From positions 248,001 to 312,000 of the forward strand of contig QPGO01000063.1 in NCBI GenBank assembly GCA_008632985.1: 64,000 bases of DNA, written 5' to 3'. The DNA comes from Psammoneis japonica. Its lineage: Eukaryota. The position numbers and the translations under genes were made by a program. The number at the start of each line of letters is the position of its first letter. Within the stretch, counting starts at the first letter, position 1. The notes beneath the pieces were generated by a model. The model saw only the letters and a program-made list of their open reading frames with translations. It was not told the DNA's origin and searched no databases. This document shows positions 13,349 to 55,040 of the stretch, piece by piece.

Positions 13349-13773
13349 GCGACAGACAATTTCCCAAAAGCTTGCCTGCACCTCTTTCGCCCCCTTCCAT
13401 TTCAAAGCACAATTCACAGCTGCAATGTCTCAAACAGCAGCAACAACAGCCGCCTTGTGAGTGCAGTCAAATTGCTGCAGCAGAAAAAGCGGCAACAACA
13501 GCAAGCACACAAATGAGTCAAAAATGCAACTGGACAAAAGAGGACATCACCTGCCATGGTGGTTCTGCCACAACTGCAAAGACAAACAATTGCATCGTTG
13601 CAGTTCTTGGCATTGCCAACCTGTGGTGCGTCATGGCAAAAAAATTTGCGTGCATTCAACCGTGCAAAAAAATCCATTCTAATCCATTCTGGCAAACAAA
13701 GAGTCAATGACAAATGCATCAATTTCATGTGACTGCAGCACTGCACTGGTTCACATTGTGCACTTGACAAAAA

Positions 13774-14782
13774 CAACATGCTGAGGCAATGGATGCAATG
13801 TCTCTTCCAAGCATGAATTCAAATGAAGGTCATGCCCACACCAGCCACACCATTCAATCAAACATTCAAGCATGCCCACACCGGCAGCAGTGCAGATGGA
13901 GCTGACAAATGGAGCATTGATGGTTGAATGTGTGACATCTGCAAAAACAAAGAGCATGACTTTTGTGAGGAATTTGTGCAACACATCATGAAAAACTGCT
14001 GCTGGTTGTTTTGGCAAGAACCGTTGTTGTTGCACAAGCACAAACGGTGCACAGAAAATGCAGTGCAAAATGTCTTGCCGGTGCAACAGCACAGTGCGCT
14101 TGTAGACCAGTGTCAGGTGGGTTCCAGTTCTTTCTAAAACACAGTCAAGGGGGTCATCCCCACGTTTGTCCTGGAATCATTGCCGAGGCATTTAAATCAG
14201 ATTTTTTACAGTGTCAGTTCTTGAATGCAAAAATTGTCTGCACTGGCACCCAATCATGCATGAAGACGAGAACATCAAGCACCGTGATCAAGGCACTGCG
14301 ATGGCAGAAATCTAACATTTCTCCAAAATGCAGTGGTCCGTCCACAAACATTTGGTGTGTCAGTGACTTTGACACACAACAAACACAAAATGGATGAGAG
14401 TTGGCAGATGGACATCCACAGACTTGTGGCTTGATGTTTTCACCATGGTGAAGCATGGTGGAATTCATGACAAATCATTCAAAACACAAGCTGTTCAGCC
14501 AAATTTGAGCTAAAAAAGCTGCAAATGACCCCCCCAAGAGTTTTTGCATGTTGTGTCACCCACAAATTCCTCACAAAAGTCCGTGCTTTTCAAGTGCAAC
14601 ATTTGGATGTTTTTGCAGATGTTGCACATTCAACTGTCTCGACACTCCATTTGTCAACATCTTTCAACACTGCTGTCATGCTCAAATGTTTGATTCATTG
14701 GCATGGCAGGCGTGGGCATGACCTTAATTTGAGTTCACATTCATGCATGGAGAGACATTCCAAATGTTGCCTCAGCATGTTG
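13774..14782. repeat. Degenerate inverted repeat pair (13774-13997 and 14539-14782)
   Basis: CAACATGCTGAGGCAA...AAGGTCATGCCCAC...TGACAAATGGAG...GACTTTTGTGAGGAATTTGTG is present on opposite strands. Confidence 0.8.
14149..14534. mobile_element. Kolobok-like MITE family 1, heavily mutated copy
   Basis: GGGGGTCAT...ATGACCCCC termini, flanks TCAA/CCAA (degenerate TTAA). Homologous to 21820-22094 and 22218-22610. Confidence 0.8.
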
Positions 14783-14789
14783 CAACTTG

Positions 14790-16000
14790 CAACAACTGCT
14801 GCCATGGTTGCTGTGGAGGCAGCCGGAAAGAACACACCTGACGGTGCAACTGTGAGGTCCAGTGCTTTTCTCACAGCACAAGTTGAGAACTCGAGCATCA
14901 CCAGGAAAGCACAGACACCGACTTCTGCTGCATCAACCTGCCGCACCCTCAAAGATGCACAGTGGCAAAGACAACCAAAAAAGGAAAAAATGATCATGAC
15001 AGCGCCCTCCTCAACATCACATTTGCATGGGCCTCCAACACAGAGTGCTGAGGCAACCTTGGCATCTGGCCATGGCAACTCTGCGTCATCATGCAAATCC
15101 GACATGCACTTGGATGTTTTCCAATGAGACCACGACAATCCTTCTCATCTTTTTGGCACCCATTTTTGCGGGCACACGTTGAGCCACATTTCTGTCACTG
15201 TGCAAGCCAACTGGTCCTTTGGTGCTTCCTGTTGCAGCAACAAATTCTGGACAAATGTGCACTTCATTTGAGAGCATCTTGGTGATTGCATCCTTCACCT
15301 TTTCAAACACTTCCAGCCAAATCGCCAAGCCAAGCAAAGAACAAAAGTCCATTGCCCCAACAAGGATTTGGTTGGGGCATCTCTTTCTTCTAGAGTGCTC
15401 TTTGACCAATTTGGCCTTGCCCACAGGGCAAAGTCATTGGCTGGATGGGGGGTGAAATTCTCGTGAGAAACTGCATGCAGTCATCGATGCGGCCAATGAT
15501 GTGAACCTGAAACTGGGAACAAGCTTGGCATGGGACACTTCCACAGCATGGAATTGGTCTGGTTTTCTGTGAGCATTTTCATTTGAGCCCAGTGCTCCTC
15601 ATCTTTCAATGGTCGTCTCTTTTTTGATGGCATGCCCCTGCTCCGAGTCTCCTCTTTCTTGACCTTTTTGATGAGGTTGTTTGCGTCAGTTGATCGTGTT
15701 GGGTTGCCTTGGTTTGACCAAACATTCCATAGCATCAACCAGTTTGGCACACAGCTAAAAATTGCCTTCTTCCAGCATTCCAATGAACTTGACCTTGCTT
15801 GCTTGTGGTTCGGGCGTTCCAGCCCATGCGCACCTTTAGATTCATCCACCACTTGACATCGTCAGGGGTCGACAAGTCACCCCATCAAGAAGTGACATGA
15901 GTGCCATCAAGGTTGGCTTGCAATATTTTTAGATGGCATGGTCTCCGTTGCATTGTTGCACAAATCGATCAGAAACTCGACAAACACCACGCAACAACCC
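14790..16000 (-). mobile_element. Crypton (CryptonS-like) tyrosine-recombinase transposon remnant
   Basis: RSSSLECWKKAI...GNPTRS...NLIKKVKK; QILVGAMDFCSLLGLAIWLE; GPVGLHSDR (HxxR box); WKTSKCMSDLHDDAELPWPDAKVASALCVGGPCKC (catalytic Tyr position reads His). Confidence 0.8.
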
Positions 16001-16445
16001 AGTTGTTTCAATGCGAAAAAAATTCCCGTGCTTCCTCCACAAAAGTGTGGAAGGTGCGGTCGCTGAAGGGGAGCGAGGGTCAGCACAACATGCAGAATTC
16101 AATGGAGAAATGCAACATGGGTTGCATTCCCGGGACAATGCACCGGCAGAGAGCAGAGCAAAGAGCTGCGGCACTTCTACCGTGCAGTGTCATGTGGTGG
16201 CACGTGGCACGCACACACGCACCGCACGCACGCAGCGCATGCAGTGGCGCAGGCGCAGCAACGCACGCACGTACGATAAGTATGTACCCTACCCTACCTA
16301 CTTCTAGTCTACGCACGAAACGGACAACGAAGCGCAGCACACAAAACCATTTCGAATCCATGATGCCACGCACTGCCAGCAATCAGCAGGGGAGCCCTTC
16401 CGCAACTTGGCAGAGAGAAAAGGCCTCGTTTCCGTCGCTTTGACC

Positions 16446-17637: not shown

Positions 17638-19730
17638 CTACCTGGCCATATCAGTGTAGCTCTGCCAAGCCTTGTGATAGGCTTGAGGAAATGATAGTTT
17701 CGGGTCGTCTTCTTGAAGACGTTTGGCAAGGTAGCACAAGAGTGCATTTGCAAGGCGAAGCGTACCAAGGTGTCCAAGGACGCTGCTCGCACCGAGGCAT
17801 CCGCCATACATTGCACCAGTGACTGAAGGAAGAAAGGCATCGCTTCCGGCAAGATAGAGTCCAGGGACTTGAGTGCGAGGATTGGTTGTCCAGTCGCGAT
17901 TGATTGGTGCAAACATCTCGGGCGTACACTTGGTGCCATACGAACCTCCACGATAGGACGAGAGAAATGTCACTTCTGTCAAGGGAGTGCCGAGATGATG
18001 GTACTCGACTTTTCCTTTGACTTGAGGAACAAAGTCGAACAAGATATCGAGCAAGTGTTTCGTAAGCTTCTCCTTGACTTGCATGTACTCGTCTCCACGG
18101 TTCCTCACTGGCTTATCAGCCCACTTCTCGAAATACTCGTAAAGCCCATCGGAAATGAGAATGCAGTTGCTCGTACCGGGGAATCGTTTCTTCCATGTCG
18201 TATCCTTGGTGCATGGGAAACCAATGTATACCGTCGGGGGTCTCACTTCCGTTGGATTCGCAAAATACGTGTCAAAAGCATCATCCAAGTCGTAGCCATT
18301 GAAATACCACAGGTTATGATTTGGAATGCCAAGCTCGTCTGGGTCTCCCGTGATTTTGCAGAACAAAAAGACGTGACCGTGGCTCTGACGAATAGACCTT
18401 TGTTCTGGGTCCTGAAACTGCTCTACGACTGGAAGATCTTGGGGAAGCAGTTTGTTGTAGAGATTGTAAACGCTCGTGGCACAAACCACATTCTTGGCCC
18501 GAATCTCGGTCAAAGGGACGGTGCTTTTGTCGGTAGCTGCAGCAAGTGCCGACGTGTTACTGACACGAACACCGACCGCACGTCCCTTTTCGACAATAAT
18601 CTCGCGTACCGTGGCATCCACAAGTGCTTCTCCACCAAAGCACCGAACAGCGGATGTAGCTCTCATGGAATAGTTTTGAGTGGCCCCGACAGTGTAGCTA
18701 CCGCCGTCCATGTAATGAGTGGCAGTAACTCCATGCGCTGCAAGAGTCGCCTCTTTTGGTTGCACAGCGTAATCACCAATTGGATGAGTCGCCACTGCTT
18801 TGAGACGACGAATCGACGGATCCGGTTCAGGACCACATGGTGCCTTGGGACAGTTCTTGAGTAGTTCGTCGCGACTGTAGCCTAGAGTAAAGACGGCATA
18901 CTGTGCATCGCGAACCGTCATGGCAGCAAACGTCATTAATCTGTTCAAGAATGGAGCGCAAGTGTAAGCAAATGGTGCTACATTGAGTGATGAGAAACGT
19001 GAAGCATGACGTACGTGTCTGTACGATCTTTGACGAGGAAGTGTAGCCACTTTGGCAGAATACGACTCATTCCAAGAGCCACGAATCCGCTGTTGATTTC
19101 ACGACAAATCGCAAGCCACACGGCAGTTCGTTCCTTTAACGTTTCATCCTCTGGATCAATACGATCAGAGAGATCCCGAATGACTTGAGCTTCTCCAGGG
19201 TAGAACGGGTATGAGTAATTGTTGGGAGCACCTTCCTTGACGTTGGTGTCACGCGGAAAGACTACTTCGTCATATGGTTCATCAGGAGGAAAGGCTTGGA
19301 ACTTTTGTACACCGTGAGTCATGAAATCCATGACGGCTCCTGCACGTGCCGTCTTGTCAGCCATATCACTGGGAACATAGTGTAGACCAGTGTCCCATTC
19401 GCAGTTATGTTCTCGAAATGAATGTGTGCATCCGCCGGTGACTAGATGCTGCTCCAACACCAAAACCCGTTGACCTGATTGAGCAAGGAGATTTGCACAC
19501 GTTGAACCACCTGAACCACTGCCAATCACAATAGTGTCAAGCCTGGAAGGAACGAGGCCGGGTCGAAAGTGATCTGCACGACGAGGAACAATCCTGCGTG
19601 GAGCAGGAAAAGTTTGAAGATAAAGCAGAAATGACGCCAAGGCAAAAGCGAGGAGTAGAAAGAGCGATACAAGGACTGCAAGTGACGGAGACTGCATCCA
19701 CAAGACTTGAAGTTGAGTAATGATAATCAT
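17638..19730 (-). CDS. RETSAT: All-trans-retinol 13,14-reductase-like / phytoene-desaturase-family FAD oxidoreductase; 2 exons (19730-19015, 18940-17638)
   Basis: N-terminal TM, DTIVIGSGSGG Rossmann motif, VLVLEQH..GGCTHSF, EWDTGLHY, GTPLT, PGLYLAGSD. The 74 bp GTACGT...AACAG intron (18941-19014) restores the frame. Confidence 0.9.
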
Positions 19731-20005
19731 GTTTTGTTTCGTTTGTTGATATGGTTTTTGTGGTGTCAAGTGTCAAGGAGGGTTCTCGTTCTCATCGATC
19801 TGGGATTGATCTCATGGCGCGCTTCTCATCGCAAAGGTGTGACTTTCGTCCTTGGCCCAATTGGGCAATGCGCTTAACAGATCCCATCGCCAGCGGCACG
19901 CAACACACTGGGATTGAGCACATCACATTATGTCGCAACATCTACACGGTAGGCCTAGAGAGAGAGTATCTAGGGCCCCTAACGTCTGTATTCCCCTTTA
20001 ATTAT

Positions 20006-21370
20006 TTACCATGTCTTTTCCTTATGACGCACCCCGTTATGCGTGCTACCGTTCTGTTTCACCCCGTTCTGCTTCACTCCATTTTGCATCGAACATGAAC
20101 ATTTAGGTGCTTGTTGTCTCCTCGCAGCATACCACGCACCAATCAAGAAGAATGGTAACGAAAGTGCGACATAGAGGCCACCAACAACAATTAGACCAAC
20201 CAACAGCTTACTTCCAAAATCGTGCATGTGTTCCGCATCAAACTCGTTTGAAATAAAGTAGGCAACCCCGCCGTCTTCTCTGTAGATGTGCAAAAAGGCA
20301 TCAATCAGTGTCCATGGTCGAATGTTTCGTTTGCCATTAAAGAGTCCAACGGTATGCCATACTCTCCAAGGACGCTCTTGGATTGTAACCAAGTCGCTGA
20401 GGGTCTGGCCCCACATTTTCCAATCGAGCGAGTACACCTTTCCGTGCGGTAGATTGCGATGGTCATCTGGACCCTGACGGGAGGATGCAAATGAAATAAA
20501 CACTTGTGCACGCTCTGTTTCATCGGTATGCCTGCCTCCCGAGTGCCATGTGTCTGTATTGTACAACAAAGCATCTCCCTGATTGACTTCCGCAAACACG
20601 TTGCAGGGTACATTGTGATGTATGTAGTTTTCAAAGCTGTCGTCATAGTGCTCCACCAACTCTGGGTTGTTAAAGAACTCCGCTTCCATGGCATCATAAT
20701 CTGCATCAGGCTGTTCACAGATATGTGTTCCAGGACACAGCCCCGTTGCTCCCATCTCTCGCGTCGTGTCTTGCAGAGCAATCGCCAATGTGTATTCTGG
20801 AACAAACAAGTCCGGATACTTGGCCGAAGACGCACCCGTGTCGGAATGAAATCCCTGTTGTAATGCCCCCTTCTTGCTAGTAATTACAGAAAAGGCCGTA
20901 AGTGAGGCTTCGGGTCCAACAAGGGAGTCGATCAAGGGTCTCAGCCTCTCGTGCGTAAAGACCTCCTTGAAAACTTGTTGAACAATTGGTGCCGTATGCG
21001 GCGGCATGATGCGATGACGATTTTCCTGTGCAATGACATAGGCTGATTCGAGCTTTTCATTGGCATCTAAAACATATTCTCGAAAAATGCTTGCAGTTTT
21101 CTTGGAGAGTACAGATGGAACAATCACAGAACCGTGTTCTCGAGCAACCTTATATGCCTCGCGTTGAGACATGTTTTCCTCCATCACAAGGTCATCCATA
21201 AAATCAGTCGTTGGGCCACAATTTCCAAGACCCTCCTTGTCTTCCAAATCATGAAGCTCCAAGGATGGCCCATAGACACGGCTGACGTAATACGCACCTC
21301 CACAGAAGATATACGCAATCACAAAGATGCAATGCGCAAGCAAAAGTACAGCTACGAGCAGCTTCATCAT
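20006..21370 (-). CDS. Phytanoyl-CoA dioxygenase (PhyH)-family 2OG-Fe(II) oxygenase with N- and C-terminal TM helices
   Basis: QGFHSD (HxD), IALQDTT..MGATGLCPGTH, GDALLYNTDTWHSGGRH. Start is uncertain and an upstream exon is possible. Confidence 0.85.
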   Translation of the reverse strand: MMKLLVAVLLLAHCIFVIAYIFCGGAYYVSRVYGPSLELHDLEDKEGLGNCGPTTDFMDDLVMEENMSQREAYKVAREHGSVIVPSVLSKKTASIFREYVLDANEKLESAYVIAQENRHRIMPPHTAPIVQQVFKEVFTHERLRPLIDSLVGPEASLTAFSVITSKKGALQQGFHSDTGASSAKYPDLFVPEYTLAIALQDTTREMGATGLCPGTHICEQPDADYDAMEAEFFNNPELVEHYDDSFENYIHHNVPCNVFAEVNQGDALLYNTDTWHSGGRHTDETERAQVFISFASSRQGPDDHRNLPHGKVYSLDWKMWGQTLSDLVTIQERPWRVWHTVGLFNGKRNIRPWTLIDAFLHIYREDGGVAYFISNEFDAEHMHDFGSKLLVGLIVVGGLYVALSLPFFLIGAWYAARRQQAPKCSCSMQNGVKQNGVKQNGSTHNGVRHKEKTW

Positions 21371-21819
21371 GGTTATAAACAACACCTATGACAATCAAAA
21401 CTCGTTGCCAAGCACTTTATGAGAGGAATATTGCTGGGGGTCAAGACAGAGAGTCAAAAGAGCAATGCAGCGTGATGAGGGCCTATCCATACCCGGTAAG
21501 GCCTATTCTTGCGTCGGTTGAGGAGTCTTGAGTCGTCATTGTCGCATGTCTCAACCGACCCACGACCCAACGGATCAATTTTTTGTGGCAGGACCTACGC
21601 CAGAGAGCCAGTCGTGTAATTACAAATACTTGTAGAAGTAATAAATCTTGAATGTATAAATAAAAATGCTATTATCGTTTACATATTATGTCTGGGCGCC
21701 CCGAAAAACCCGGGATTCAGTCCCGGGTTTTCCACTACAGTACCGGTAGCCGTTAGCCGTTGAACGGAAAGATCCAATAACCATTGATCATTACTCAGAG
21801 GTTTTAGTCGGGATGTTAA

Positions 21820-22094
21820 GGGGGGTCATCCCCGCGTTTATCCTAAAATTACCGTTGCATTTGAATAAGGTTTTTTATAGTGTTTATTTTTGAATACAAG
21901 AATTATTCATAGTCACACCCGATCGCGCACGAAAACGAGAACCATCACCACCGCGACCGAAGCACGACGATGATGACAATCATCGATATTTCTCAAAAAC
22001 GTAGTTTGCCGTCTACCAACTTTTCATGTATATACAATCTTTGATACATAACAAACATAAAATAAATGAGAGTTGGTAGACGGACCACCTCCGT
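21820..22094. mobile_element. Kolobok-like MITE family 1, unmutated copy running into the N gap
   Basis: TTAA|GGGGGGTCATCCC left end; TA- and CG-rich. Confidence 0.8.
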
Positions 22095-22213
22095 NNNNNN
22101 NNNNNNNNNNNNNNNNNNNNNNNNNNNNNNNNNNNNNNNNNNNNNNNNNNNNNNNNNNNNNNNNNNNNNNNNNNNNNNNNNNNNNNNNNNNNNNNNNNNN
22201 NNNNNNNNNNNNN
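22095..22213. other. Assembly gap
   Basis: Run of N. Confidence 1.
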
Positions 22214-22217
22214 TTAA

Positions 22218-22610
22218 GGCGGGTCATCCCCCACTTTTTTTAGCTCGAATTTGGCCGAATAGCTCGTGATTTGCATGATTTTTCTTGAATTTCACCGTGC
22301 TTCACCGTGGTGAAAACATCAAGCCATAAGTCTGTGACGGAGGTGGGCCGTGCGTCAACTTTCATTTATTTTATGCTTGTTGTGTATCCAAGGTCACACA
22401 CACATCAAATGTTTGCACACGGACCACTGCGTTTTGACTTGTGTCGATGTCACCGTCATCGTCGTGCTTCGATCACGGTGCCTGATGTTCTCGTTTTCGT
22501 GTGCGATCGGGGGTGAGTGCAAATGATTTTTGCATTCAAAAATGAACACTGTGAATGTCCTCATTCAAATGCCACGATAATTTCTAGGACAAACATGGGG
22601 ATGACCCGCC
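22218..22610. mobile_element. Kolobok-like MITE family 1, complete 393 bp copy, inverted relative to the other two
   Basis: TTAA|GGCGGGTCATCCCCA...TGGGGATGACCCGCC|TCAA. A TTAA target with GG..CC ends fits Kolobok rather than piggyBac. Confidence 0.85.
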
Positions 22611-25600
22611 TCAATGACTGTTCACCCTTCAAATGACACATCTGACGGTTGGAGTTACATTGGCATTTTGGGTTTTTTGCAGTGACGCATCACTGCAGAA
22701 ATGTCACCTGAGTCTACGTTGAAAAGCTGATGACTGCAAAAAAAAAAAAACCGCAGCCACCACCATTGTCGTCAAAGCAACATGCTCAGTGAATCGGAGC
22801 ATCAATGTCGTGATGAAGATGGCCGCCTCTGAAAGCACCAATGAAGCGTTTGGTGGAATGGCAGCACAACAACCAGGGCCACCGCTGCACATGACGGCCA
22901 CAGACTTTGGTCCCGCAACCATGGAGGACCAACTGGTGAACCCGAGCACATCCTTGAGGATGAGACAGAGACGGGAGATGGTGGTGACAGTGACGAAGAG
23001 CATGAGAATGTCAATGACATTGATGGAGCTCGTGCTGAAGCCCATTTGGAACGGTTGAGATCGCGTGTTGTGGACCAAGACAGTGACGAACAGACTGTGG
23101 CTGACAACGACCATGCTGCCTTGCCACTGCACCATGGTGAGCATGACCCGTCGGCACAGTTGAACGTTCCAGGCACTCCTGAAGGGTGGCAGCTGCCTGA
23201 AATAAAAGCAGACAAGGGGAGCCACCATTTGCTGATGTGGACAATCCCGGAGGGTGGAGCAGACATGCATTCCGCCCTGAGTTTGAGGCAAGAGGGGAGA
23301 AGGAGTGCATTCATCACAGCTTGCCAACTGGTGCCATGCCAGCACCTGAGAATTCGGAAGGGAAATGAATTTCCCATGGATGGTGGTTCTTTTGTCAGGG
23401 ATGGGATCGGCCCATGTCCAGCGATGATGTTGCTGATGATGACAAAGATCTGATGTTGTCACTGCCAAACAGATCGGGTGCATCAAAAGACAACCTGTTT
23501 CCAGGCATTGGGAAAGGATCATTGGACACAGGTGTGTTGTGATCGTTGGGAATGAAAGCTGAGCGGATGAAAAATCGGGATGCTTTGTTTTTCTGTCAAC
23601 TGATTCTGCCAATTGTGACACCACACGGTCGGGTGTCAACTCAGACCCCAGAAAGTCATTCTACAGCGAAGTGGAAACATGTTCAAACTTGCACACCGTG
23701 GGAGAGTTGAAGCCATGCTCTTCATGTGCACACCAGTTCAAACTTGTGAGCATCCAGGAGCTTGTCAGATTTGATGGAGTGATTGTCCGAGACGGCATCA
23801 AGGGTGGCAGTGACAGAGCCACACACCGCAGGTGGATGGCTGATGGATCCGACTGCAACTCAGATGTGTCCTTGTCAATTGGTCATTCATGTTGGCTTCA
23901 AATGAAGCAAGTGCTGAAGCCATGCAACAACATGACATCCCCCCAGAAGAGGAGAAGCTGGGTGCAACCCGGCCCACAAGTGCAACATGACATGCGCGAC
24001 AACAGTTCACAATGTCAATGCGACAACACACCATGCAGAATTGGATCAATGTGGTGACGAAACCACCTGGGGCCATGCAGGTTGTGGCGAAGCTGGCAGC
24101 AGGATTGCCGGTTGCACAGTTGGAAAGCCCGGCATCACCAAGGGAGGTCAGACAGTGATCATGTCGATGCACACCGGATCCGACCTCGGGCTCATGTTCA
24201 CCGACACAAATTGCACCCAAGGACAGATGGATGGGGTGCCATGGGCCCAACAGAAATCTGTGTGATCTTGGAACAAGCAGGCGAAATGGTGGATTTTGGC
24301 AGAATGGGTGACGACGCCGGACCCAAGAAGACATTCCAAGGAAAGCCACACATGACATGTGACAACTGCTTTGACACTGACTGCAGTTCAGACTGGATTG
24401 GAGAAAATGGCCATTTGGCTGCATTTACACGTCAAAGGGATCGGCTGCCTTTGGGTGTGCCAGGGAAGTGCTTTCAGAAAAAACAAACACCACCCAATGC
24501 AAGATGTCGAAAGCAGCAAGGTTCAATCATCCGATTGTTGCTGTCAAGACTGTGGCGCCCACACGCAGTGCTGAGGGATGCCAGCGTGTGCTTTGCTCAT
24601 TTCAATCAACCTCGTTGTGCAACATTGCTGCTGTGAATGCCCTCAACGAGTGTAACAAATGTGTGAGGCATCGGGAAACAGGCAGAAACGAGAGCAAGCG
24701 ACACTGGGCAATCGAGATGAATGAAGCCCATGATCTGTGTCTTTCAACTTGCTCACGAACTGATTCAATGGATCATTGCATCAAAAATGCAAAGATGTTC
24801 CATTGCTCTTGGAAGTGTTGGCATTCTGCCACGAACCACGGTGAGGCCATGGCCATCGTCATTGCACATGACATGCATTTGGAAGTGGCGAAGGGTGGGT
24901 TAGACTTGTCTTGGAAAGACGACAGTCCAGTGGGTCACTGGGAGTTCCGAGAACAACTCTCAAGACAGATGCTGCAGCATCACCCTGAAGCACGTTTGTG
25001 CCATGGTGACTCCGCAATGCGGGTTGCAACGCAACAAAACCATCAACAAAGAGTGGCTTTGGAACAAACGACAACGACTCGCAATTTTGTGACACCAGAA
25101 CAATGCCAACACGCTCAGCAGGGTGGAAATGAATCTCGTCTGTGTCACAGTGTGCTGCGCTTGTGTTGTCACTTCGATGCGGTGTCCACCAGCCACAAGC
25201 ATCCAAGGGTCTGTGTTTGGTGCGGGGCAGACTCGCACTCGAGTTGTGACCTGTGTGGGAAACCATTGCACTTCCCTGCCAACCAAGGCGCAAGCGGCAA
25301 GAAGACCTGTTTCCTTGACAGTCATGATGCACTGTTGTGTGGGCTTGGCAGGGAAGACACTCAGCTGTTTTCAAACAAATGCAAGACTGACTGGACACCA
25401 CCATCAATCACGGTGAAGAGACAGAATGCAAATCACATCAAAAGTCTCATTGAACAGCAGGACAGCAATGCCACATAAAATGTTAAATTCTTTGTTCAAC
25501 ATTGTAAGCAGCAGCAGCCATGCAGTGGATCAAGTGATCTATTTTCTGTAAGAACTGGGAAGCAAAGTCACATCGGGTTCTAAGAAATGGCAAAATTACG

Positions 25601-25769
25601 CAGAAAAAGCACTGCGAGCCAGGTGAATAAAAACCCGGGTTTCAATCCCGTGTTTTCATTTTGGGGTTCAAACCCGCATTTTCAAAAACCAGGGATTCAG
25701 TCCCGGGGTTCTGGTGCCAAGACTAAACGACAAGTGTGTTGACACCAAATTGCCGATAGAAAAGTTAAA

Positions 25770-26850
25770 GCTCATGGGGATGCCCTCAAAACGATCCTCA
25801 GGACCCCACCCAACCTTCAGGCCAGAGCTGTCAAGCGCAGCACCAAGACTGGAGCGTGGCTGTCAGCACACCCTTCGATGCTGAACGGCACGGAACTCTC
25901 ATGCCAAGAGTTCCGCGACGCACTCTTTCTAAGGTGTGGCGGTGCTCCACCCGACCTCCCATGCTCTTCAGTGCAAGAAGGGCGGCCCAGTCATCTCACG
26001 ACATGATGAAGTACGTGACAACCTTGGAGACCCAATGGGCAAGGCTTGCAAACCTTCCTGCGCACGCGACGAACCTCTGATCAACCCCGCTGGTCACAGC
26101 GCGGGAAATGCAAGCACCCCCAACAGCACTTCAGGAAACACCAACTCCAACAAGTCCAAGGATGGCGATTGTGAAGACCTTCTCGGCATGAGATTTTGGG
26201 ATGGAAGGACAGACATGGTGACGGACATTTGCATCCCCGACACGGACGCGAAGTCACACCTGTCCAAAACACCAGAAGAAGTCCCAGCAAGCCACAAATG
26301 TGAAAAGAAGCGCAAGTGCCTCCAGCCATGTCTGGAACAACGCCGTCATTTCACACCATTCGTTGCATCATGCGATGGGCTTTTTGGCAAAGAAGCCAAG
26401 GCGATGCTCTGCAAGACAGCATTGAAACTTTCAGATGAGTGGCAAAAGCCACATTCTGAAGCATGCGGCTGCGTTAACGCAAGGATGAGCATCACCACAG
26501 TCAGGGCAACCCACCGTTGCCTCAGGGGATCCCACATTCCCACCTCTCAGATCAGCTCCAGGCAACCCCAGTGGGAGGATGGTGCAGGTCTGTCCCTCTG
26601 CAAACACCAAATGACCCGGATGCAATTGACCACCACCTGTCCAGACCATGTGCCAAATGACAGTCCACAGACATGCTGATGCCATGCCCAGAAGACAACA
26701 AAAACCCACCATCACAAAGGAACACCGCGCCAGAATCAGTTCAAAAGTTCGCGTGCACTGCCTGTGAAAATGCGCGCATCAACTGCCCCTCACTTGCACG
26801 ACTGCACTAACTGTGCAACATCCATTTTCTCCATTGCCGAAATGGCTCCA
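25770..26850 (+). mobile_element. 5'-truncated non-LTR retrotransposon (CRE-like, restriction-like endonuclease domain)
   Basis: HALQCKKGG...RHDEVRD, D..DTDAKS, EKKRKCLQPCLEQRRHFTPFVASCDGLFGKEA, ARMSI..VRATHRCLRGS, PQWEDGAGL. Confidence 0.85.
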
Positions 26851-27299
26851 TCGCTCAGGGGTGCATTGTCAAAAACATGATCAAGTAAATCCATTCTCTC
26901 CACCCACTCTCTGTCAGCAGCTGGCAGTGGCCAGCTGCCGGATGAGGCTCAGCCACTCACAGTCTCAGTGAGACAGTGACACACAACAATCAACAAGATG
27001 CTTCTAAAGGCCTGTTGCAACTAAAAAGGCATTGAGTGACAGAGAAGTGTGTGACCTTTTTCCATGGCTGCTCATTTTCCCCTCCAACAACAGGTCATCA
27101 TCACCCACATGTGCTCCACTGGTGAAGCACAAACAATTGATGCCCGTGCTTCTGATTTCACTCAGTCCCCTCAAAATGTTTCTAGCAAGCTTGATGGGCA
27201 CAATTCAATCCAAATGACACCAAATCTTCAAACACAAACACAGAGCCACGCCCACTGAGCATGGAAAAGAAACCCAGCTGGGGCCGGGAAGACAGCCAC

Positions 27300-29800
27300 C
27301 ATGCTGCTCGAACCCAAGCCAGCACCCACATCCTGAGCTCAATGCGCAAACTTGTCCAACAGGAAATTCCACCACACTGATGCCACAACCTTTGTGAACA
27401 GATCTGAGAGGTTGGTCTCAGCATGCTCCTTCTTCACAATCCTCCGACAGCCCCCGCAGCATCAGCTTCTCATCACTGGACTGTGATGACACATGATGGA
27501 GCAATGCTTCTTATTCTTAAGTGCAGACTCAGGAATGGAGCAATTCTTGTGCATGGCCTTGTTGTCACAAAAAATGATGGCAGGCCCTTTGATCAGAACC
27601 CCAAACATTTGAAGCTTGTGGCATGGACCTTCGATCAGCTCAATGGCGCTCTTGAGTGCAACAATCTCTGCTCCAAATGCACTGGCCTCCACAGCATTCC
27701 AGTGCTTTGAGTGCCACATGGGGGGTGCCTGGAAGAGGAAGATCAAAATGCCTGCATGACTGCAATGATCAGCAACATTGCTGGCACAACCAGTGTCAAC
27801 AAAACAATGCATTGACACTGCATTTCCTTGAGCTGGTGGTGTTTTTGGCAGGATGGCTTCTTCCTCTGCTTCATGGTGGAAACCAAACAAAACCACACTT
27901 GGCAAATCTCCACTTGTTGATCACCAGGTGTGTGGGGTCAAACACCACTTGTCCCTTTGGAGCCTGTTTGAGATGTGCAATGATGTGCAGCACCTGCTCC
28001 AAATGACTGATTTGAGGCAGGACAGAGTGAGGTGAGCAGACACCAACAAAACTTCCAAGTGAGTGTCCACTCTGTTGAGCTCCACAGCCCAAACCAACAT
28101 GCCAATTGATTCCTGCAGCATCTAACTTGTGTCCGTCATGTCCAACTCTGGCTTGCATCTGCTGCTCAATGGGTTGTTGCCTTGCCAGAAAAGCACTTTC
28201 CTTCCTTGCCAAGTTTGTCTTTGATGTTCTAGACAGCTGCCTTTTTGCAGCACTTCTCTGCCAACATTGACCAACTGGAGGTGGTGCCATCACCTGGGTC
28301 CATCTTGGAAAGAATGGCCCGGACAAGAATCAGGTTTGGCCACCTTGTCACCCTTGAGTTTGAACTTGGACTTGATGCCATCTGACATCTTTGTGGGTGC
28401 ATGATTGATCAACAGCACACATTCAACATGAACTAAAATGTGCTTGCAGTGCTTGAATCCATTGGGTCTCACTGCAGGTTGCACCATCCACACCCAGGGT
28501 TTGGTCTCACTTGGCTTGCAACCCAGACTGCAAAGCATCTCCAGCACCTGGAAAGCCCTGAGTGCTGCTCCTGAACTCTTCAATCCACAGAGTGCTCTGA
28601 CTGCAATCATGATGCACCCTTCATCCTTGCCAAATTCCTTTGAACTTGCATGAGTTGAAATCTTCTCCCCACAAGGGGCAGTGAGGCAGGCACTCTGGGT
28701 GTCAGAGGCAAAAACTTGCAAGCACAGCAAATGCAAGAGCAATCCTTGCCAAATGCCCAGAGATGACAGAAGAGCAAGTGACAGTGGTGGGAGACTCACA
28801 GTGGCATGCCCCCCTGTGACCATCCCAGCTTTGTGATAAAAATTCTCTCCTGTCTTGATGTCCTCAAAGACCATGTGACACTTGACCTCTTGGAATCCTG
28901 GTGCCATTTCATCAGGCCAGCCTTCAAATTTCTTGAGTGCTGCCCAAACGAGCATTCTTCATCTCCATGCAAATGGCATTGCCACTCACATGGTCTGGCT
29001 CCATCACCTCCTTGACACTCTTGGGGATCTGTGCACCAAACCTTGTGGGTCTGGAACCAATGCTTTGACTTGACTTTCACAAGGGAACACTTGCATGTCC
29101 TCAAGATGTGAGGAACCCACCAAGCAAATGCTGGTTCCTTGGAGACCTTGTGCTGAATGGTGAACTTGACTTGGCAACCTGGACTGGAGAGCTCTCCTTT
29201 GCAACCTTCAGGTTGACCCAAGCTGGACTCATGCTCCCATCCTTCCATTGAAACAAAAGCTCCCCCATCTTTTGGTGGTCTTGTGCCACTTCCAATTGCC
29301 TTGCTCAGTCTCAAAGAATGCAGTCTTGGGAATGTCCACATTCAAATGACAGTCAATGGTTTCATCAAACAAAACACATTGATTCCTGTCCTCTCGCAGA
29401 TCTGTGCAAACACATCCATGGCAATGGAGTCAGCTGAAAGTGCAGTGGCATGACCATCATGGTGCTTCACCTGACACATTCTGGCATCGAGAGTGGGACC
29501 ATCATTTGCAGCCCCAATCAGAACACTGTTGGCACCCCTCAACCTCTTCACAATGTGTGCAAACTGGGGGCCATCATTGTCTCTGGGAAGTCCAACCTCC
29601 ATTGGTGGTCTCGCAGAATGATCACAGCATCCGAGTGACACCGCTGCATGATCCACCTGGCAGGGACAAGAATGTTCCAAGCGGAACTTGTGCAGAGATG
29701 ATGAAAGGATCATGGCCGTTGATTGTGGCTCTGTGACTTGGCACATTCCAACAGCAAAAGAGATGCCACTAGAAGGAGCAACCATGGTTTTCAAGGATGT
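27300..29800 (-). mobile_element. Ty1/copia (CoDi-like) pol remnant: RT and RNase H
   Basis: EPAFAWWVPH, PGFQEVKCHMVF, ALCGLKSSGAA, degenerate YVDD (ILVHVEC), RNase H CFVD...WHSK...VEASAFGAEIVALK...IFCDN...KKHCSI. Confidence 0.9.
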
Positions 29801-31157
29801 GGGTCACAAGGGGTGTGACTTCTTGTGGACCGCTCAAGGAGGTTTGAAAGGCACTTCCAGACCAGGGCTTTGTCACACAGCAGTCAACCAGAATGGATTT
29901 TGGAAGCCCAGCAGCTCTGCAACCACATTGACAAAAGAAAAGCTTCAACAATGCATTTGCAAAATGAGTTCTCAGCATGGCACCACAACAAAGGCTGTGC
30001 AAAGTGCACCTGTGTTGTGCCACAGCAGAAGGCTTGCTGCCATTGCATCACCCCACTTCAAATGTGAGAGTGCAGCACAATTTCAGAATTCACAATTGAA
30101 ATGGTTTGGACATGCTTGCCTCACGAAAAGCTTTTCCTTGTGTTGTTCATTCTTGCAGTCCTGCATGGTGATGGAGTGGGATCAGAATCACTTGAACATC
30201 TCAAAGCAACAGAGATCAGCACAATGATCCTTGAGCCGGAAAACAAGACGACACTTTTTTCAAACATTCACAAAAAGATCCAGCAAGTTTCTCCAGCATG
30301 CTGCTGTTGTGACTCTTGCAGTTTTGGCATTGCAAAATCTTCCAACATTTGCATGTTGTTTGCTCTGCTGGAGGGACAGCAATGGCAAAGATGAGGATGT
30401 GACTTGGCTCTTCAAGGTGTTGCAAGGCTCTCATTTCCGCTCCCCATCGTCATGTTTCTGCCGGAGTGGAAGCCAGGGAAGCAACTCCACTTTCTCACCC
30501 CATCTCTGTTGGGCTTGCACATGATTCAGCTGGCAAAATGCTTTCCTGTGTGCACAATTTATCACTTCACATTTGTGCTTTCTTTGCACGAGTTTTGCAT
30601 TTGTTCATCACACAAAGCACCCTTTCTCTTGGTGTCGTGGAGTGACTTTGAGAGGATGTTTGTCCTTCATCTTGACACTGGGCCATGTTGTTTGGTGGAG
30701 TGTGGTCCATTCAAATTGCATGTAAAACTTTGTGGCACAGGTTGGTTGTGTGGAAGTTTTCGAAAAGCTTTTCTCTCCAACTGCACAGCAAGGCATTCAC
30801 CTGGCAGACAAGATCATTGCCTGCAATTGTGGCTCTGCACCTGCAGCTCGTGATGCCTTGAAGCCCCCCGCAGATGATGCGACAATAGAGCAGGAGATCC
30901 CTGGACGAATGTTGGACCATGCCGTGTCATAGCCCAACGTCATCTGGGTTTTCATTTTCTGGATTGATGCGTTGATGGTCCGAGCGGTCGGTGGCAAGAT
31001 GCTGTATTTTACGAACGGGAATGGCGATGTCTTTTTTTGTGCGAGAAAATTTCGACACTGTGGCACGAAGCGATAACGGCAAGATCCGCACACGTCATCA
31101 ACCAGATCCGTCGCCTCATCCATCAATCAACGCGAACGCAACTTGACCGTACCCAGC

Positions 31158-32168
31158 ATGACGATGAGCGTTCTGAAATTAGTGCCGTCCAGGCTGTTTT
31201 GCATTTGTGGGATAGTGCTACTGGCTTTTAGCCATGGTTTTTCTTGCAATGCTTGGGCCCCAAGTTCGAGCCTCAAGAAAACAGCGCGGTTGGCTCACGG
31301 TGCCACACGGTTGTACGTGAAGAAGGGAACTCCTTCATTTGTTTCAGAGAAAAACAGTAACGAATCTGAAGAAGAAAAGAACGTATCTCTGGCATCACAG
31401 GTGAAACCTGAGTCTCTAATGGCAAGCGCTTTAGTTCCTTTGGCGCTCTTGATGTTTCCAGAAAACGCACACGCCGCGGGGAGTCCGTCCGTGATTGGTT
31501 CTGCGTTTGTAGCCTATGGACATTATTTGAGTCTGCTGGTGACTGCCGCATGCATCACGACGGAACGATTCACTATCAAGCCAAACATGACTGGAGAGGA
31601 GGAAGATCGTATTGCGATTGCTGATACAGTTCTTGGGTGAGCATGGAATGATCTACTGTATGTTGACGCAACAACAACTTTCGTCATCTTTGACTAACAT
31701 TTCTTGCTCATAAACAATACATCTAGATTGGCAGGTGTCTTGTTGGCTTATACTGGATACTTGCGGGTCGTTGAGTATGGCAAGGGTTGGGAGTTTTACG
31801 CCCACGAGCCAATCTTCTGGCTCAAGATTGCCTTTGTTGGAGTATTTGGTGGCCTGTCGTTCTTCAACACTATAATTATCATTCAGCTATCGGTCGCAAA
31901 ACGGCAGGGTGAGACCTTGGAGCCAATGTCAGAAAAGTTGGCAGATCGAATGAACAGAATTTGCACGGCCGAGCTTTCTGCTCTGGCTAGCATTCCGTTG
32001 ACGGCGACACTCATGTCTCGTGGCGTCTTGTACAGTGACGAAATTCCTTGGCAGATTGGAGCAGGATTTGCGTTTCTCGTGTTTGGTGGTGCAAGCTACA
32101 AGTATGTTTCGGATGCTCTGAATTGGAAAGAAGACCTTGATGAAATTGAAACAAGTGCTGAATCCTAA
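31158..32168 (+). CDS. DUF2214-family membrane protein, probably plastid-targeted; 2 exons (31158-31636, 31727-32168)
   Basis: Signal/transit region, AYGHYLS, GYLRVVEYGKGWEFYAHEPIFWLK, IPLTATLMSRGV. Intron GTGAGC...GACTAAC...TAG (31637-31726). Confidence 0.85.
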
Positions 32169-32535
32169 TTGCTTTCTTGCACAAAGGTCGCAAGTAGTTG
32201 AAATCCTGCGAGCTAATACCGGTTCATGCTGCCTACTCACACTGTAGTTGCCATGCGCTTGTTTAGTGCACCATCGCAAGAAATAAAAACGTTTTTTTCT
32301 GCTTTAGAACAAGGGATAAAATGAGCAAGGTCGACTTTGGACTTCCGCAATAGCAACTCAAAAATTGGGTCCCGCGTTGCATTCGCGATCGAGTCACGAG
32401 CAACGGCGACGGCACCATGATCTCAACACCTGTTGCGCTGCCGTTCGAATTCGAAGCTTTCGCTCATGGTGACTCGTTTGTATCTCTTTATTGTGTCCCT
32501 ATTTTTAACGCCTCTTTGGCATGAACCATCATGCT
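32001..32535 (+). repeat. Direct repeat copy 1 (pairs with 44639-45205); includes a truncated 5' stub of the 45136 gene at ~32466-32535
   Basis: Colinear alignment over ~540 bp. Confidence 0.95.
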
Positions 32536-32739: not shown

Positions 32740-35700
32740 ATGGCTTCCAACCCATCATCGCCTCGGAAACACAGCAAGAGTAATCCAGTTGTGTCATCAC
32801 TGCCCCATCGATCGCCTCATCCCTATTCTGCAATTGCGTCTTCTCCGAATCGGCGACATGCGGTGGTTGCAGGAAAAGATACCTTGACCGTCCTCGAGGT
32901 CGGACCTCAAGGATTATCTCATGAGAAATCGTTTCGAATCTCTCAGGTACGTGTACTATATGGCGACTTGCATCAACTTAGTTTTGATCTGATATTGAAG
33001 TTCTCATCCTTTCTTCCGCATGTTTCTGTTTTTGCCAGCACTTTCAATCCTCTTCTGTCGAATCCACCTCAAACAACAGCAGCAAGCAAGCACAAGACGA
33101 CAAAACGTATGGAGACATTCGGGAAACATTTGGTCTTAAATCACGTCCTGCACCAAACATGAGAACAAGTGGTGAATCCAGTGTAAATTGTACTCACGTT
33201 GCCTGGAGTCTACCGCAAGTGCCGAGCGAATTTAGCATGAGTGAGACGTTCAACGACAATGAAACACCACTGACGTCGTCCATAAACTCGGCAACTTCCA
33301 TGAGAGACCATTCAAGCAGTCACAACCAGCAGGCTGACACCCTGATTGCTGTTGCTGGATCGAACGGAATGGTGGTTATTTGGAATGCCGACAAATCCAT
33401 CCTTTCCCCGTCATCAAATCAGAATCCCATGCCAGAAGCGGTCTTGACACAACACGGTCGGGCTGTAAACAAAGTGGCATGGCACCCAACCGGAAAGCGA
33501 CCCGAACTCTTACTTTCTGCCTCGCAGGATTCGACGGTCAAGCTCTGGGAGCGTTCCACCAACGATCGAGGCTCACAAGAAAGCAACGTGCCCGGTTTGC
33601 GTTCGTGGTTTGGAATGCAACTGCACACGACAAAGGTTGCTAATCAGTCCGTCTCGTGGCGTTGTAAGTTTACCTTTCAACCTCATTCCGAAGCTGTCCG
33701 GGATATTGCGTGGAGTCATTTTGACGACAATGGTAAGAAACGAATCATGATTCCCCTTTTTGTATATTGTGCGTTCCCGACAGCTCACGCGACACGTTTA
33801 GTTTTTGCCATGGTGACGGGGAGCGGATGTTTGATTGTCTACAATATCACCGCACCTGCTCGACCATGGGTTAAGATTGCCGCACATTCGGGAGATGCAA
33901 CCACCCTTGATTGGCATCCTAGACATCCATACATCGTCGCGACCGGTGGGGGGAGTCAGGATCAGCGAGTAAAGAGTAAGTAGGCGGGAATCGTTGCAAG
34001 ATGTAACCGGGACGAAACCGCATCCGCTCTAATTGCTTATCATTTTATTTATTTGCCGCCTCTAGTTTGGAATCTTGAAAGTAGCATGGACCTTTCCAAA
34101 CGAGATGAAAAGAACGTGGCGAAGAACTCGCTGTCTGCCAGATCTGAGTACAGTCATGCGTCAACAGCATCGGAGAACTCAAATGACGAGACTGTCATTC
34201 GTTCCGGGTAAGTGCGTACCGCTGGAGGCTCGATTCTATGCTGGCGCCTTTTGATTCTAAGAAACGTTTCGTCTTGCCTGCAGATCATCGACACCACGAG
34301 GAAACAGTCTACACGAGATGGAGATAAACCCTGTGCCACTGGCCAGCTACAATTCCGCCACGCGTTCATTGTCATCGTCCACAGTGTCGCTAAACTCGAC
34401 ATTGACATCCAACAAGTTTGTCGCTACGGCTACTCGACACGTTTTATCGATATCCGCATCTGTCACGCACCTAAAATGGAGACCACCCAGCGGCAGCACT
34501 CAGAGCTCATCCATGGACAGCAGTGGTGCTGTGCTCAACCGTCATGATGCCATGTTGGCGGTAGCAACCGCACCAATCAAAGGCGCGCATGCGGGTGGCT
34601 CTGGTGTACTGAGCCTTTGGTCTCACCATAGACCTTTTATGCCTTTGAGTGTTTTGGAGGGGCACAGCACCGGAGCTGTGACAGACTTTGTTTGGCTTGA
34701 TACTCCTCGCTCGTCTGACACCGATCCGTTCTCACCATTTGAATCAGCTAGAATACCTGGAAGTATGTTTCCGCATGAAACAGAGGTGGAGAGTAGTTTG
34801 CATCAAAAACCCACGTCCGGTATATGGCAGCACGTTCTAAGCGTAGGTCGAGATGGCAGGTGCTTGCTACAGAGCTTCGCTCGAGGTGAGTACATGAAGA
34901 ACTACCGTTTGTCACCTACAGAGCGAGACCCTGTCAAGCTCAACCTCTGTTTATTTATTTCAAAAAGGCGACCGCCCAATCTCTCGTGTTCCTCCATCCT
35001 GTTTCGCAATGGCAAACTTGTCGCCGTTTCAGAGTGGCTATGGATCGTTGCAGATTTGCGCCGTTCACCAACGCGTTCCTTCGAGCATTAAGGATGACTT
35101 TCGTTTGACGGGATTGCGCCGTGATGAAATCACCGCCCGTGCGCCTGGGGTTTTTCAAGAGTTACCATTGCCTGAAGTTGAGAAAGAGAAGCGAACTGAA
35201 AATAATAGACAAGTTGTTGAGGGAGTTCGGCATCCAGGTGAGACATCTTTGATGCGTATCTCTTTTTACGATCACGCGTTTCTTGGGTCTCATTTTTGCT
35301 TCGTTGTTCAGCGACTTCGCCAAAGCTTGTTATCAGCGTATTGGATGACGGCGATCTGGATGGAAATGGGATCCCGATTTCGGGATTGCAGGCTCCTTTT
35401 ATGATAGCACCTGAGGTCGTGCATCTGTCAAGATTTGCGAACTCTTACAAGCTCTACCTAGACAATGCATGTCCAACCCGTGTTGATTTATGTTTTCATA
35501 ACGGCGATGTAGCTGAACGGTATCGTTGTGGCCCGCTTGCACGAATGTGGAGGATGCTTGCGTCGACACTACAAGGCTCTGGCCTTACAGATCTGCCCAC
35601 ACGCGGATCCACCTCCAGTAATGCAATGGAGTTTGTACTCTTGCCTGCTCTTCGTTCACTTCTGGAGCAGAGGGCAGATGCTGGGGATGCTCAAACCTGC

Positions 35701-39270: not shown

Positions 39271-39502
39271 TGCTCTCTAACTGGAGAGCATGCTCTAGCT
39301 GGCTAACTGCCAGGCCCTGGCAGAGCAGCCTCTCCACTTAGCTACTCTCTCTAGCTGCTAGCTGCTCTCTCTAGCTCTAGCTGGTAGAGAGAGTAGAGCT
39401 CTGCTGGTGGTGGCTGGCAGAGGTGCTGCAGAGTCTATTTCCACTCGAAGTAGTCAACCTGAAATCCACCTCATTTCTCATTTCTTGTCTGAGCCTTGCG
39501 CC

Positions 39503-43800: not shown

Positions 43801-43900
43801 GCACTGTACTGTATTTCTTAGGGATTACTGACGCGTTGTTTCCCAGTAGTGCACCCCCGACACGCTTTGCCGTTGTTGCTGGTGATGTTGGTTCTGTCAT
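40823..43900 (-). CDS. WDR75: WDR75/UTP17 (Nan1) SSU processome WD40 protein, with three apparent 1-nt frameshifts
   Basis: KLHWHAHAV..L.Y, LYTGGMESVLVNWQL, LPRI, TLKFW, AFSSDGSLLAIAFGHMVTLWD, C-terminal LPALSASF. Confidence 0.8.
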
Positions 43901-52930: not shown

Positions 52931-52936
52931 GATTAA

Positions 52937-54936: not shown

Positions 54937-55040
54937 GAAGATTCCATCAGCCCGTGACCCATTTAGTTGTTGTTTATGGTCCATCTTAGGTCCATAAGCT
55001 CATATTTTCAATAGTCTGTAGATAGTAATTCGCACTTGAG

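Follow-up and report, generated by a model that had tools for sequence, protein, structure and literature searches.

Near-complete TA loss and variable CG loss in the same transposon blocks of a Psammoneis japonica contig probably reflect two mutational processes

We analysed 64 000 nucleotides of DNA from Psammoneis japonica (GenBank assembly GCA_008632985.1, contig QPGO01000063.1, positions 248 001–312 000 of the forward strand). This whole stretch is called the window below, and positions are counted from its first letter. Blocks of transposon remnants in the window have lost nearly all of their TA dinucleotides and a widely varying share of their CG dinucleotides. Our results support TA loss being faster than CG loss and kinetically uncoupled from it, yet falling in the same domains. 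Two mutational processes have probably acted on the same silenced transposon domains, a fast TpA-specific transition mutator and a slower decay of CpG. The direction and dinucleotide specificity of the two changes, their shared location, their differing degrees of completion and their targeting by domain can all be read directly from the window.

RESULTS AND DISCUSSION

TA and CG are depleted in the same blocks

Over the whole window, the ratio of observed to expected counts (o/e) was 0.35 for TA, 0.63 for CG, 1.45 for CA and 1.47 for TG. A two-state hidden Markov model (HMM) on P(A|T), with parameters set by us, delimited seven sharply bounded TA-depleted blocks with a TA o/e of 0.04–0.12, together occupying 30.8 of the 64 kb (48% of the window). 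In the host-like remainder, a 291-bp island excepted (see below), TA o/e was 0.47–0.64 and CG o/e 0.85–1.02; CG depletion was confined to the TA-depleted blocks. With strand-symmetrised counts, o/e changed from host to blocks from 0.59 to 0.06 for TA, from 0.96 to 0.31 for CG and from 1.20 to 1.73 for CA/TG, and every other dinucleotide shifted by no more than 0.13. The mass balance sets a TA deficit of 37.8 per kb and a CG deficit of 33.6 per kb, 71.5 per kb together, against a TG plus CA excess of 66.6 per kb. In 1-kb bins, TA o/e was at most 0.12 and mean TG/CA o/e at least 1.63 throughout 3001–16000, 23001–25000, 26001–31000 and 47001–52000.

The largest block spans 13.2 kb (2969–16176; TA o/e 0.07, CG o/e 0.26). 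Two blocks carry the element remnants treated below: 22387–25469, with a piggyBac-like remnant (TA o/e 0.049, CG 0.56, TG 1.84, CA 1.69), and 25772–30878, with remnants of a non-long-terminal-repeat (non-LTR) and a copia retrotransposon (TA o/e 0.053, CG 0.25 overall). The others are 37117–39276 (TA o/e 0.062, CG 0.21), 44108–44855 (TA o/e 0.043, CG 0.54), the right edge of which lies within a partial duplicate of a host-gene 3' end, 46576–52406 (TA o/e 0.038, CG 0.30), and a TA-poor but CG-intact stretch, 63305–63988 (6 TA, o/e 0.12; 35 CG, o/e 1.0). This last stretch is either an element caught early in hypermutation or one that is TA-poor by nature, and in the latter case would be interesting as an escape from the mutator. 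By eye, 63305–64000 holds one long, gag-like open frame that is cut by the window end, keeps two Tyr and has no Pfam match. The block 46576–52406 contains degenerate tandem or dispersed repeats, 68–88% identical, at 51056–52350 and 49111–49485.

A first-pass annotation, made by a model from the letters and a list of open reading frames, had described 22700–26850 (4151 bp) as almost emptied of TA while still holding many CG. Compared with 1000 mononucleotide shuffles, this is borne out: the interval has 21 TA against 239.2 ± 11.6 (minimum 207) and 150 CG against 273.1 ± 12.1 (minimum 234), and the CG-rich string quoted near 26060 is present there. Eleven of the 21 TA sit in a 296-bp island, 25476–25771; to its left, 22700–25475 has 6 TA (o/e 0.037) and 94 CG (o/e 0.52), and to its right, 25772–26850 has 4 TA (o/e 0.075) and 47 CG (o/e 0.60). 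The blocks at 3–16 kb and 27–30 kb were described as more degraded, with both dinucleotides lost, and we found the same, both in 2969–16176 (above) and in the 1-kb bins of 27–30 kb, where CG o/e was 0.05–0.15.

The same annotation had pointed to two open reading frames without Tyr. We likewise counted none in either the 336-residue frame (24468–25478; 23 Cys, 24 His) or the 247-residue frame (25936–26679; 16 Cys, 12 His). These frames are not genes; they opened up because TAA and TAG were lost. The density of these two stops falls from 19.3 per kb of strand in host DNA to 2.7 in the blocks, so that long open frames arise there in all six frames. The window has 226 open frames of at least 90 residues, and 73 are in host-like DNA.

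Element remnants inside the blocks

Direct Pfam scans were empty, and element identities were taken from homologue searches. At E ≤ 0.01, no family was found in 90 block frames (14 in 22.7–30.2 kb and 76 in other blocks), and at E ≤ 10, 12 of the 14 frames in 22.7–30.2 kb gave five chance-level matches, the best with E 0.032. A tblastn map of homologues places a piggyBac-superfamily transposase remnant, in three frames, on the + strand at 23258–25478. The frame 24381–25478 had nine homologues at E ≤ 1e-3, two of which (P0006 and P0009) carry PF13843 (DDE_Tnp_1_7), and P0006 aligned along its residues 2–580. Since homologues carry this domain and map across the remnant, the piggyBac identity proposed at first pass stands.

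The neighbouring remnant, 25743–26854 (+ strand; CG o/e about 0.6), is a 5'-truncated non-LTR retrotransposon of the R2/CRE group, with a C-terminal zinc knuckle and restriction-like endonuclease. It was placed by homologues, by tblastn (25743–26607), by Foldseek and by a change point. Its frame 25933–26679 had 2319 homologues and corresponds to the C-terminal ~220 residues of proteins that reach about 1100 residues in length. The assignment to the R2/CRE group follows from RVT_1, found weakly in two of the five homologues of at least 1000 residues tested, and from a structural model of the homologue P0019 (predicted local distance difference test score, pLDDT, 81.1), the top seven Foldseek matches of which are R2 proteins (E 2.9e-5 to 1.7e-3); PD-(D/E)XK cap-snatching endonucleases rank after these. 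The non-LTR profile gave no match at E ≤ 1 among PDB sequences. What had been called CRE-like thus holds at the level of an R2/CRE-type non-LTR element with a C-terminal restriction-like endonuclease; the narrower CRE clade goes beyond that support.

A homologue map identifies a Ty1/copia-type pol remnant at 27342–29620 on the − strand. All eight homologues of its frame 28290–28958 (−) carry PF07727 (Ty1/copia reverse transcriptase, RVT_2-type), and the remnant aligns to residues about 647–1400 of polyproteins of 1400 residues. The summed depth of contigs from sequencing run X1 was 557–983 over the piggyBac remnant, 2170–2335 over the non-LTR remnant and 230–276 over the copia remnant, as against about 60 for single-copy DNA, which indicates that all three belong to multi-copy families.

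Between the piggyBac and non-LTR remnants, the HMM finds an island of near-host TA density at 25476–25766 (291 bp; 10 TA, o/e 0.42). Direct repeats that contain GTTAAA flank it, three GGGTTCAANCCCG-like units lie inside, and it is multi-copy in the genome; the TA at 25505 reads CA in other copies. By eye, the GGGTTCAANCCCG-like unit resembles a tRNA B box. The island may be a piggyBac-type miniature element: the TTAA-containing direct repeat was the sole support for this, and a terminal inverted repeat was not found.

TA and CG both changed to TG and CA

As the ancestral state we took alignment columns in which most homologues agree, together with sibling copies of repeats. At 13 columns of conserved Tyr, the piggyBac remnant now has 7 Cys, 5 His and 1 Ser (5 Cys, 5 His and 1 Ser at a stricter cut-off). 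The copia remnant has 9 His, 8 Cys and no Tyr at 21 such columns, and the non-LTR remnant 2 Cys and 1 His at three. Pooled over the remnants, Cys or His has replaced 32 of 37 conserved Tyr (TAY to TGY or CAY) and none is still Tyr; the Cys:His ratio of 17:15 indicates no strand bias. The numbers of Tyr>His versus Tyr>Cys, sorted by the base preceding the codon, were too small and showed no trend.

The same columns record the loss of CG. Of 21 conserved Arg in the piggyBac remnant, eight are still CGN, six are AGR and four are now TGC, CAA or CAT (CGN lost in 4/12). In the copia remnant, nine of 26 conserved Arg are kept, all as AGR, and another 12 have turned into Trp, Gln, Cys or His (CGN lost in 12/12). 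The non-LTR remnant kept six CGN-Arg and lost two. Over the three remnants, 18 of 32 inferred CGN-Arg codons are now TGN or CAN.

A high-copy short repeat beginning TTAA-GGGGGGTCATCCCC gave a nucleotide-level reference. Its unmutated copy (21816–22094, +) was aligned with a copy that spans a block edge (22236–22621, −; aligned over 22337–22614) and with a fully mutated copy (14141–14517, +; aligned over 14149–14413). The edge copy has TG or CA in place of 16 of 22 TA and has lost 4 of 18 CG. In the fully mutated copy, 15 of 18 TA had become TG or CA, with one kept, and 9 of 17 CG had become TG or CA. In the two alignments together, 31 of 40 ancestral TA are now TG or CA; a control repeat pair in host-state DNA kept 24 of 31 TA and showed no bias. 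Among 40 of the 1427 rows in which contigs of the sequencing runs differ from the window by a letter, there were four CA<->TG double differences, which an ancestral TA or CG fits equally well.

The summed contig depth was 5677 in the bin 22214–22880, which holds the edge copy, compared with about 60 for single-copy DNA; the repeat may have on the order of 100 copies in the genome and is possibly a piggyBac-type miniature element. The copies at 21816–22094 and 22236–22621 are inverted around an assembly gap (N run, 22095–22213).

TA loss is near its floor where CG loss is not

Across 30 1-kb windows within the blocks, TA o/e was 0.014–0.121 and homogeneous (chi2 23.5, 29 degrees of freedom (df), p = 0.75). 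In the same windows, CG o/e was heterogeneous (chi2 196, p = 1e-26), with a 30-fold range from 0.032 to 0.996, and the two did not correlate (Spearman rho 0.20, p = 0.30). Because TA is uniformly at its floor while CG varies, and the two are uncorrelated, TA loss is the faster and is kinetically uncoupled from CG loss. This supports the first-pass view that TA loss is uncoupled from CG loss and apparently faster. TA is saturated in every block, and CG loss runs from none to near-total with steps at element junctions. At the junction of the non-LTR and copia remnants (26854), for example, P(G|C) steps down from 0.142 to 0.030 (likelihood ratio 49.8) and TA stays flat. Likewise, the piggyBac and non-LTR remnants together kept 14 CGN-Arg codons and lost six, as against none kept and 12 lost in the copia remnant (Fisher p = 1.1e-4).

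Relatives of the non-LTR element separate the two losses further. Among 78 metagenomic loci of this family, none of 1940 windows of 600 bp had a TA o/e below 0.2, and several loci were CG-poor (0.21 in L006, 0.29 in L069 and 0.37 in L078). Since these loci keep TA and several are poor in CG, the TA process is lineage-restricted and CG decay occurs without it. Eight of 150 family representatives were Tyr-free or nearly so; in some of these eight, conserved Arg was kept, in 6/6 positions in P0166, 6/6 in P0132 and 7/9 in P0056, the last with none turned into Cys, His, Gln or Trp. The reverse was also seen, with normal Tyr and heavy loss of Arg in P0024 (9/12) and others.

Targeting follows domain

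Unmutated and mutated copies of the TTAA-GGGGGGTCATCCCC repeat lie 300 bp apart. The block edge at 22387 falls within a repeat copy and the edge at 44855 within a duplicated host-gene fragment. The latter (44641–45205) is a partial duplicate, 83% identical, of 32003–32535, where the DUF2214 gene ends (3') and its downstream flank follows. Its first ~215 bp are hypermutated (three Tyr>Cys and one Arg>His), its remainder keeps eight shared TA, and the parent is intact. A 452-bp repeat pair that is 86% identical (52933–53384 and 54492–54945) is untouched. Targeting thus follows domain, and neither sequence family nor repeat status. Because copies differ by place, edges cut through a repeat and a host fragment, and the 452-bp pair was spared, a chromatin-type domain is favoured over homology sensing of the kind seen in repeat-induced point mutation (RIP).

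The region 52410–57000 is AT-richer (GC 0.39–0.43), has internal repeats, including a tandem (55290–55502 versus 55516–55725) at 98.6%, and carries no hypermutation.

TA change favours a 3' pyrimidine

Surviving TA are strongly skewed in context. Of 115 survivors, four are in RTAY and 56 in YTAR, as against 28.5% and 21.1% in the 78 unmutated relatives (chi2 66.8, p = 3e-15), and no surviving TA is in ATAC or GTAT. We fitted an additive two-strand model in which the A of each strand mutates independently and the base 3' of it determines the rate. The rates were 2.19 for T, 1.72 for C, 0.89 for G and 0.58 for A (likelihood-ratio test 75.6, p = 3e-16). Mutation thus favours a pyrimidine 3' of the mutated A.

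Comparison with known systems

A closely similar signal has been described in Bigelowiella natans (Mettrop et al., bioRxiv 10.64898/2026.01.13.699255), where integrated viral DNA undergoes TpA>TpG/CpA hypermutation. Of the 302 de novo mutations in the preprint, 231 fell in two viral insertions, with all AT>GC ones at TpA. In a region from a nucleocytoplasmic large DNA virus (NCLDV), 210 of 211 mutations were TpA changes of the type A>G or T>C, and only one was GC>AT. The reported rates are 6.85e-7 for u(AT>GC) and 3.9e-9 for u(GC>AT), and the de novo rate in mutation-accumulation lines was about 1000-fold over background. The authors list 124 TpA-poor clusters genome-wide, find an ADAT2 candidate enzyme and cite ADAT2 enzymes with deaminase activity on both A and C in DNA. 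By our calculation, the preprint's 211 mutations, 6169 TpA and 3132 generations correspond to a rate of about 1e-5 per TpA per generation, at which half of the TpA would be gone after roughly 6e4 generations. Set beside 3.9e-9 per G/C site, such a gap explains how TA can reach its floor before CG moves.

The likeness is in transitions at TpA only, with TpG and CpA as products, in discrete stretches of foreign or mobile DNA beside otherwise normal sequence, and in a long-term signature of TpA depletion with CpA/TpG enrichment along consecutive 1-kb windows. TpA-poor predicted genes of Bigelowiella are reported to be enriched in reverse transcriptase and DDE domains, and retroelements and DDE elements are affected here too. 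Unlike in Bigelowiella, the host genes of the window resemble those of diatoms, not chlorarachniophytes, and the targets are ordinary transposon islands at saturation (TA o/e about 0.05, compared with 0.45 in the Bigelowiella NCLDV region). Here, CpG decay occurs in the same blocks, whereas 'CpG' does not occur in the text of the preprint. We also measured a 3'-neighbour preference; the preprint's main text has no instance of 'trinucleotide', 'context' or 'flanking', a matter that its supplements may cover. A literature search gave no report of TpA hypermutation in diatoms, nor elsewhere beyond this preprint. Two candidate precedents were set aside, PMC9258296 (diatom plus hypermutation), which concerns immunoglobulin hypermutation, and PMC13196603, which concerns viral and not host methylation.

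Fungal RIP is likewise a genome defence, and the dinucleotide-specific transitions by which it wrecks transposons strongly skew their dinucleotide composition. It differs in direction, changing C>T mainly at CpA and so raising TpA, whereas here TA o/e falls from 0.59 to 0.06 and CA/TG rises. It also differs in trigger, being set off by duplication and mutating both copies; here mutated and unmutated siblings coexist and an 86% identical pair is untouched. APOBEC3 and ADAR in animals share with our blocks a deaminase-type, context-specific hypermutation of parasitic nucleic acids, but their substrates are cDNA or RNA intermediates and their action is strand-biased, whereas both strands of resident DNA, including a DNA transposon, are affected here. 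CpG decay by deamination of 5-methylcytosine (5mC), as in vertebrates and in CpG-methylating diatoms, matches the change of CG to TG/CA within transposon blocks, the change of CGN to TGN/CAN and the host CG o/e of about 1, but it accounts only for the CG half of the signal. Transposons of other diatoms are reported to be CpG-methylated (PMC9998398, PMC5124317).

Proposed processes and their alternatives

The first process would be a fast TpA-specific mutator (A:T>G:C) that turns TA into TG or CA on both strands about equally, until only about 5% of TA survive. It would be of the same kind as that acting on integrated viral DNA in B. natans. It would consist of enzymatic deamination of adenine in DNA, with an ADAT2/TadA-like deaminase as the leading candidate. 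The second process would be a slower decay of CpG to TpG/CpA, most likely through 5mC deamination in transposons that are presumably CpG-methylated, as diatom transposons elsewhere are. It would accumulate in each element with time since insertion or silencing, if CG level does reflect age.

The target A34 of TadA and ADAT2-3 follows an invariant U33, and in bacterial tRNA-Arg the next base is C35, which makes a 5'-T-A-C-3'-like context. U33-A34-C35 thereby resembles the rule of a 5' T and a 3' pyrimidine found here.

A single DNA deaminase of dual specificity, attacking A in TpA and C or 5mC in CpG of silenced domains but much faster at TpA, would also put both losses in exactly the same blocks and end both in TG/CA. 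CG loss does climb with TA loss in the partly mutated repeat copies (22% with 73%, and 53% with 83%), and the ADAT2 enzymes cited in the Bigelowiella preprint act on both bases. Against it, related elements elsewhere lose CG and keep TA, 63305–63988 combines a TA o/e of 0.12 with a CG o/e of 1.0, the reported Bigelowiella hypermutations are 210/211 at TpA with one GC>AT, and 5mC deamination, on what is reported of methylated diatom transposons, already suffices for CG loss. We give such an enzyme a slim chance. It is unlikely, too, that the mutator acts on thymine. A T in TpA that an enzyme had oxidised or modified to something like 5-hydroxymethyl- or 5-formyl-uracil would mispair with G and yield T>C, and because TA is self-complementary T>C and A>G look alike in all of our counts. 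Dinoflagellates place 5-hydroxymethyluracil preferentially at TpA and TpC. Our analyses gave no evidence for such a modification in this sequence or in diatoms, and the context of 5' T and 3' pyrimidine resembles the TadA/ADAT substrate described above; the ADAT2 candidate reported in Bigelowiella also speaks for a deaminase.

ADAR-like A-to-I editing of transposon transcripts, fixed through retrotransposition, would share the 5' U preference that the Bigelowiella preprint (bioRxiv 10.64898/2026.01.13.699255) gives as typical of ADARs. However, the piggyBac remnant, the TTAA-flanked repeat and the host-gene fragment were hit no less heavily than the retroelements, copies within one family differ by location, and the strands are equal (Cys:His 17:15). 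ADARs favour a 3' G, the opposite of the 3' pyrimidine seen here, and we regard this route as highly improbable. No more credible is that the signal is an artefact of miscalled modified bases, or that the elements were TA-poor on arrival or through selection. Modified bases can yield systematic miscalls in some long-read assemblies, and the sequencing platform of the runs is not on record. Nevertheless, X1 contigs at the single-copy depth of about 60 match the window over the copia block, reproducing 27543–28908 with five differing letters and 28888–29688 with one. Natural TA poverty is at odds with the turning of conserved Tyr into Cys or His in frames that are also broken, which is decay and not adaptation, and with the unmutated sibling repeat copy in the same window.

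Several points weigh against the preferred account of a TpA mutator and a separate CpG decay. Kinetic uncoupling alone is compatible with one enzyme working at two rates; a deaminase working fast at TpA and slowly at CpG would saturate the two in an identical order. Differences in CG could reflect methylation levels or starting CG content and not time. A>G is inseparable from T>C on the opposite strand, so that the first-pass statement that A>G at TA saturates first stands as TA>TG/CA preceding CG loss in each copy examined, and not as to the base attacked. The context model fits moderately (deviance 13.9, df 6, p = 0.03), and its baseline of host or metagenomic 4-mer frequencies is a proxy for ancestral composition. 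Run X1 may be the window's own assembly data and hence no independent proof, and the Bigelowiella rates come from a different supergroup than this host. The two distinct processes proposed at first pass are nonetheless supported, since the case for them rests not only on the uncoupling, which a two-rate enzyme fits, but also on the relatives that are CG-poor and keep TA and on the Bigelowiella mutation spectrum.

Implications

Targeted A:T>G:C hypermutation of DNA is so far known from one 2026 chlorarachniophyte preprint. A saturated footprint on diatom transposons would show that such a defence extends beyond one species and to transposons as well as viruses, and that it acts on the same targets as CpG methylation but far more quickly. 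More speculatively, and with a good chance of being mistaken, we suggest by analogy that diatoms, and possibly much of the stramenopile–alveolate–Rhizaria (SAR) group, might have a chromatin-domain DNA-editing defence that deaminates A at TpA within silenced transposon islands, in bursts completed before CpG decay becomes visible. Since the rule of a 5' T and a 3' pyrimidine mirrors the U33-A34-C35 substrate of TadA/ADAT2, the mutator could be a recruited tRNA deaminase paralogue, in effect a natural adenine base editor. The 3'-neighbour rule is a testable handle on the enzyme, and the CG level within TA-erased elements may act as a relative insertion clock. For annotation, hypermutated blocks produce false long open reading frames and escape Pfam, which leads to transposon content being underestimated and 'orphan genes' being overcalled.

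Host genes and other features of the window

Pfam identifies a sulfotransferase exon (1440–2765, −), an amine oxidase exon (17641–19772, −), a PhyH dioxygenase exon (20009–21385, −), a DUF2214 exon (31077–32165, +), a WD40 exon (32988–33980, +) and a WDR75 exon (41397–44050, −). These Pfam-supported host genes have long exons and few introns; genes of Bigelowiella are intron-rich. The closest named homologues of WDR75 are from diatoms, Seminavis robusta (41%) and Mayamaea pseudoterrestris (34%), with other named stramenopiles and fungi at no more than 29%. In an Atlas search, the second-ranked cluster has Bacillariophyta as its commonest group; the amine oxidase exon returned bacterial clusters only, which are uninformative on the lineage.

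In a second sequencing run, X2, a contig joins across 164 bases with GT..AG ends at 39822–39987, an intron of the gene at about 39.4–40.3 kb. X2, which carries the label 'DNA?', is probably RNA-derived, because of this spliced contig. Its depth was 0 in 10 of 13 bins over 22881–30884 and in all three bins over 37555–39555, which carries no weight on expression. Across the window, Rfam gave a single match at gathering score, a U2 spliceosomal small nuclear RNA gene at 58264–58414 on the + strand (RF00004, 55.5 bits, E 2.8e-8).

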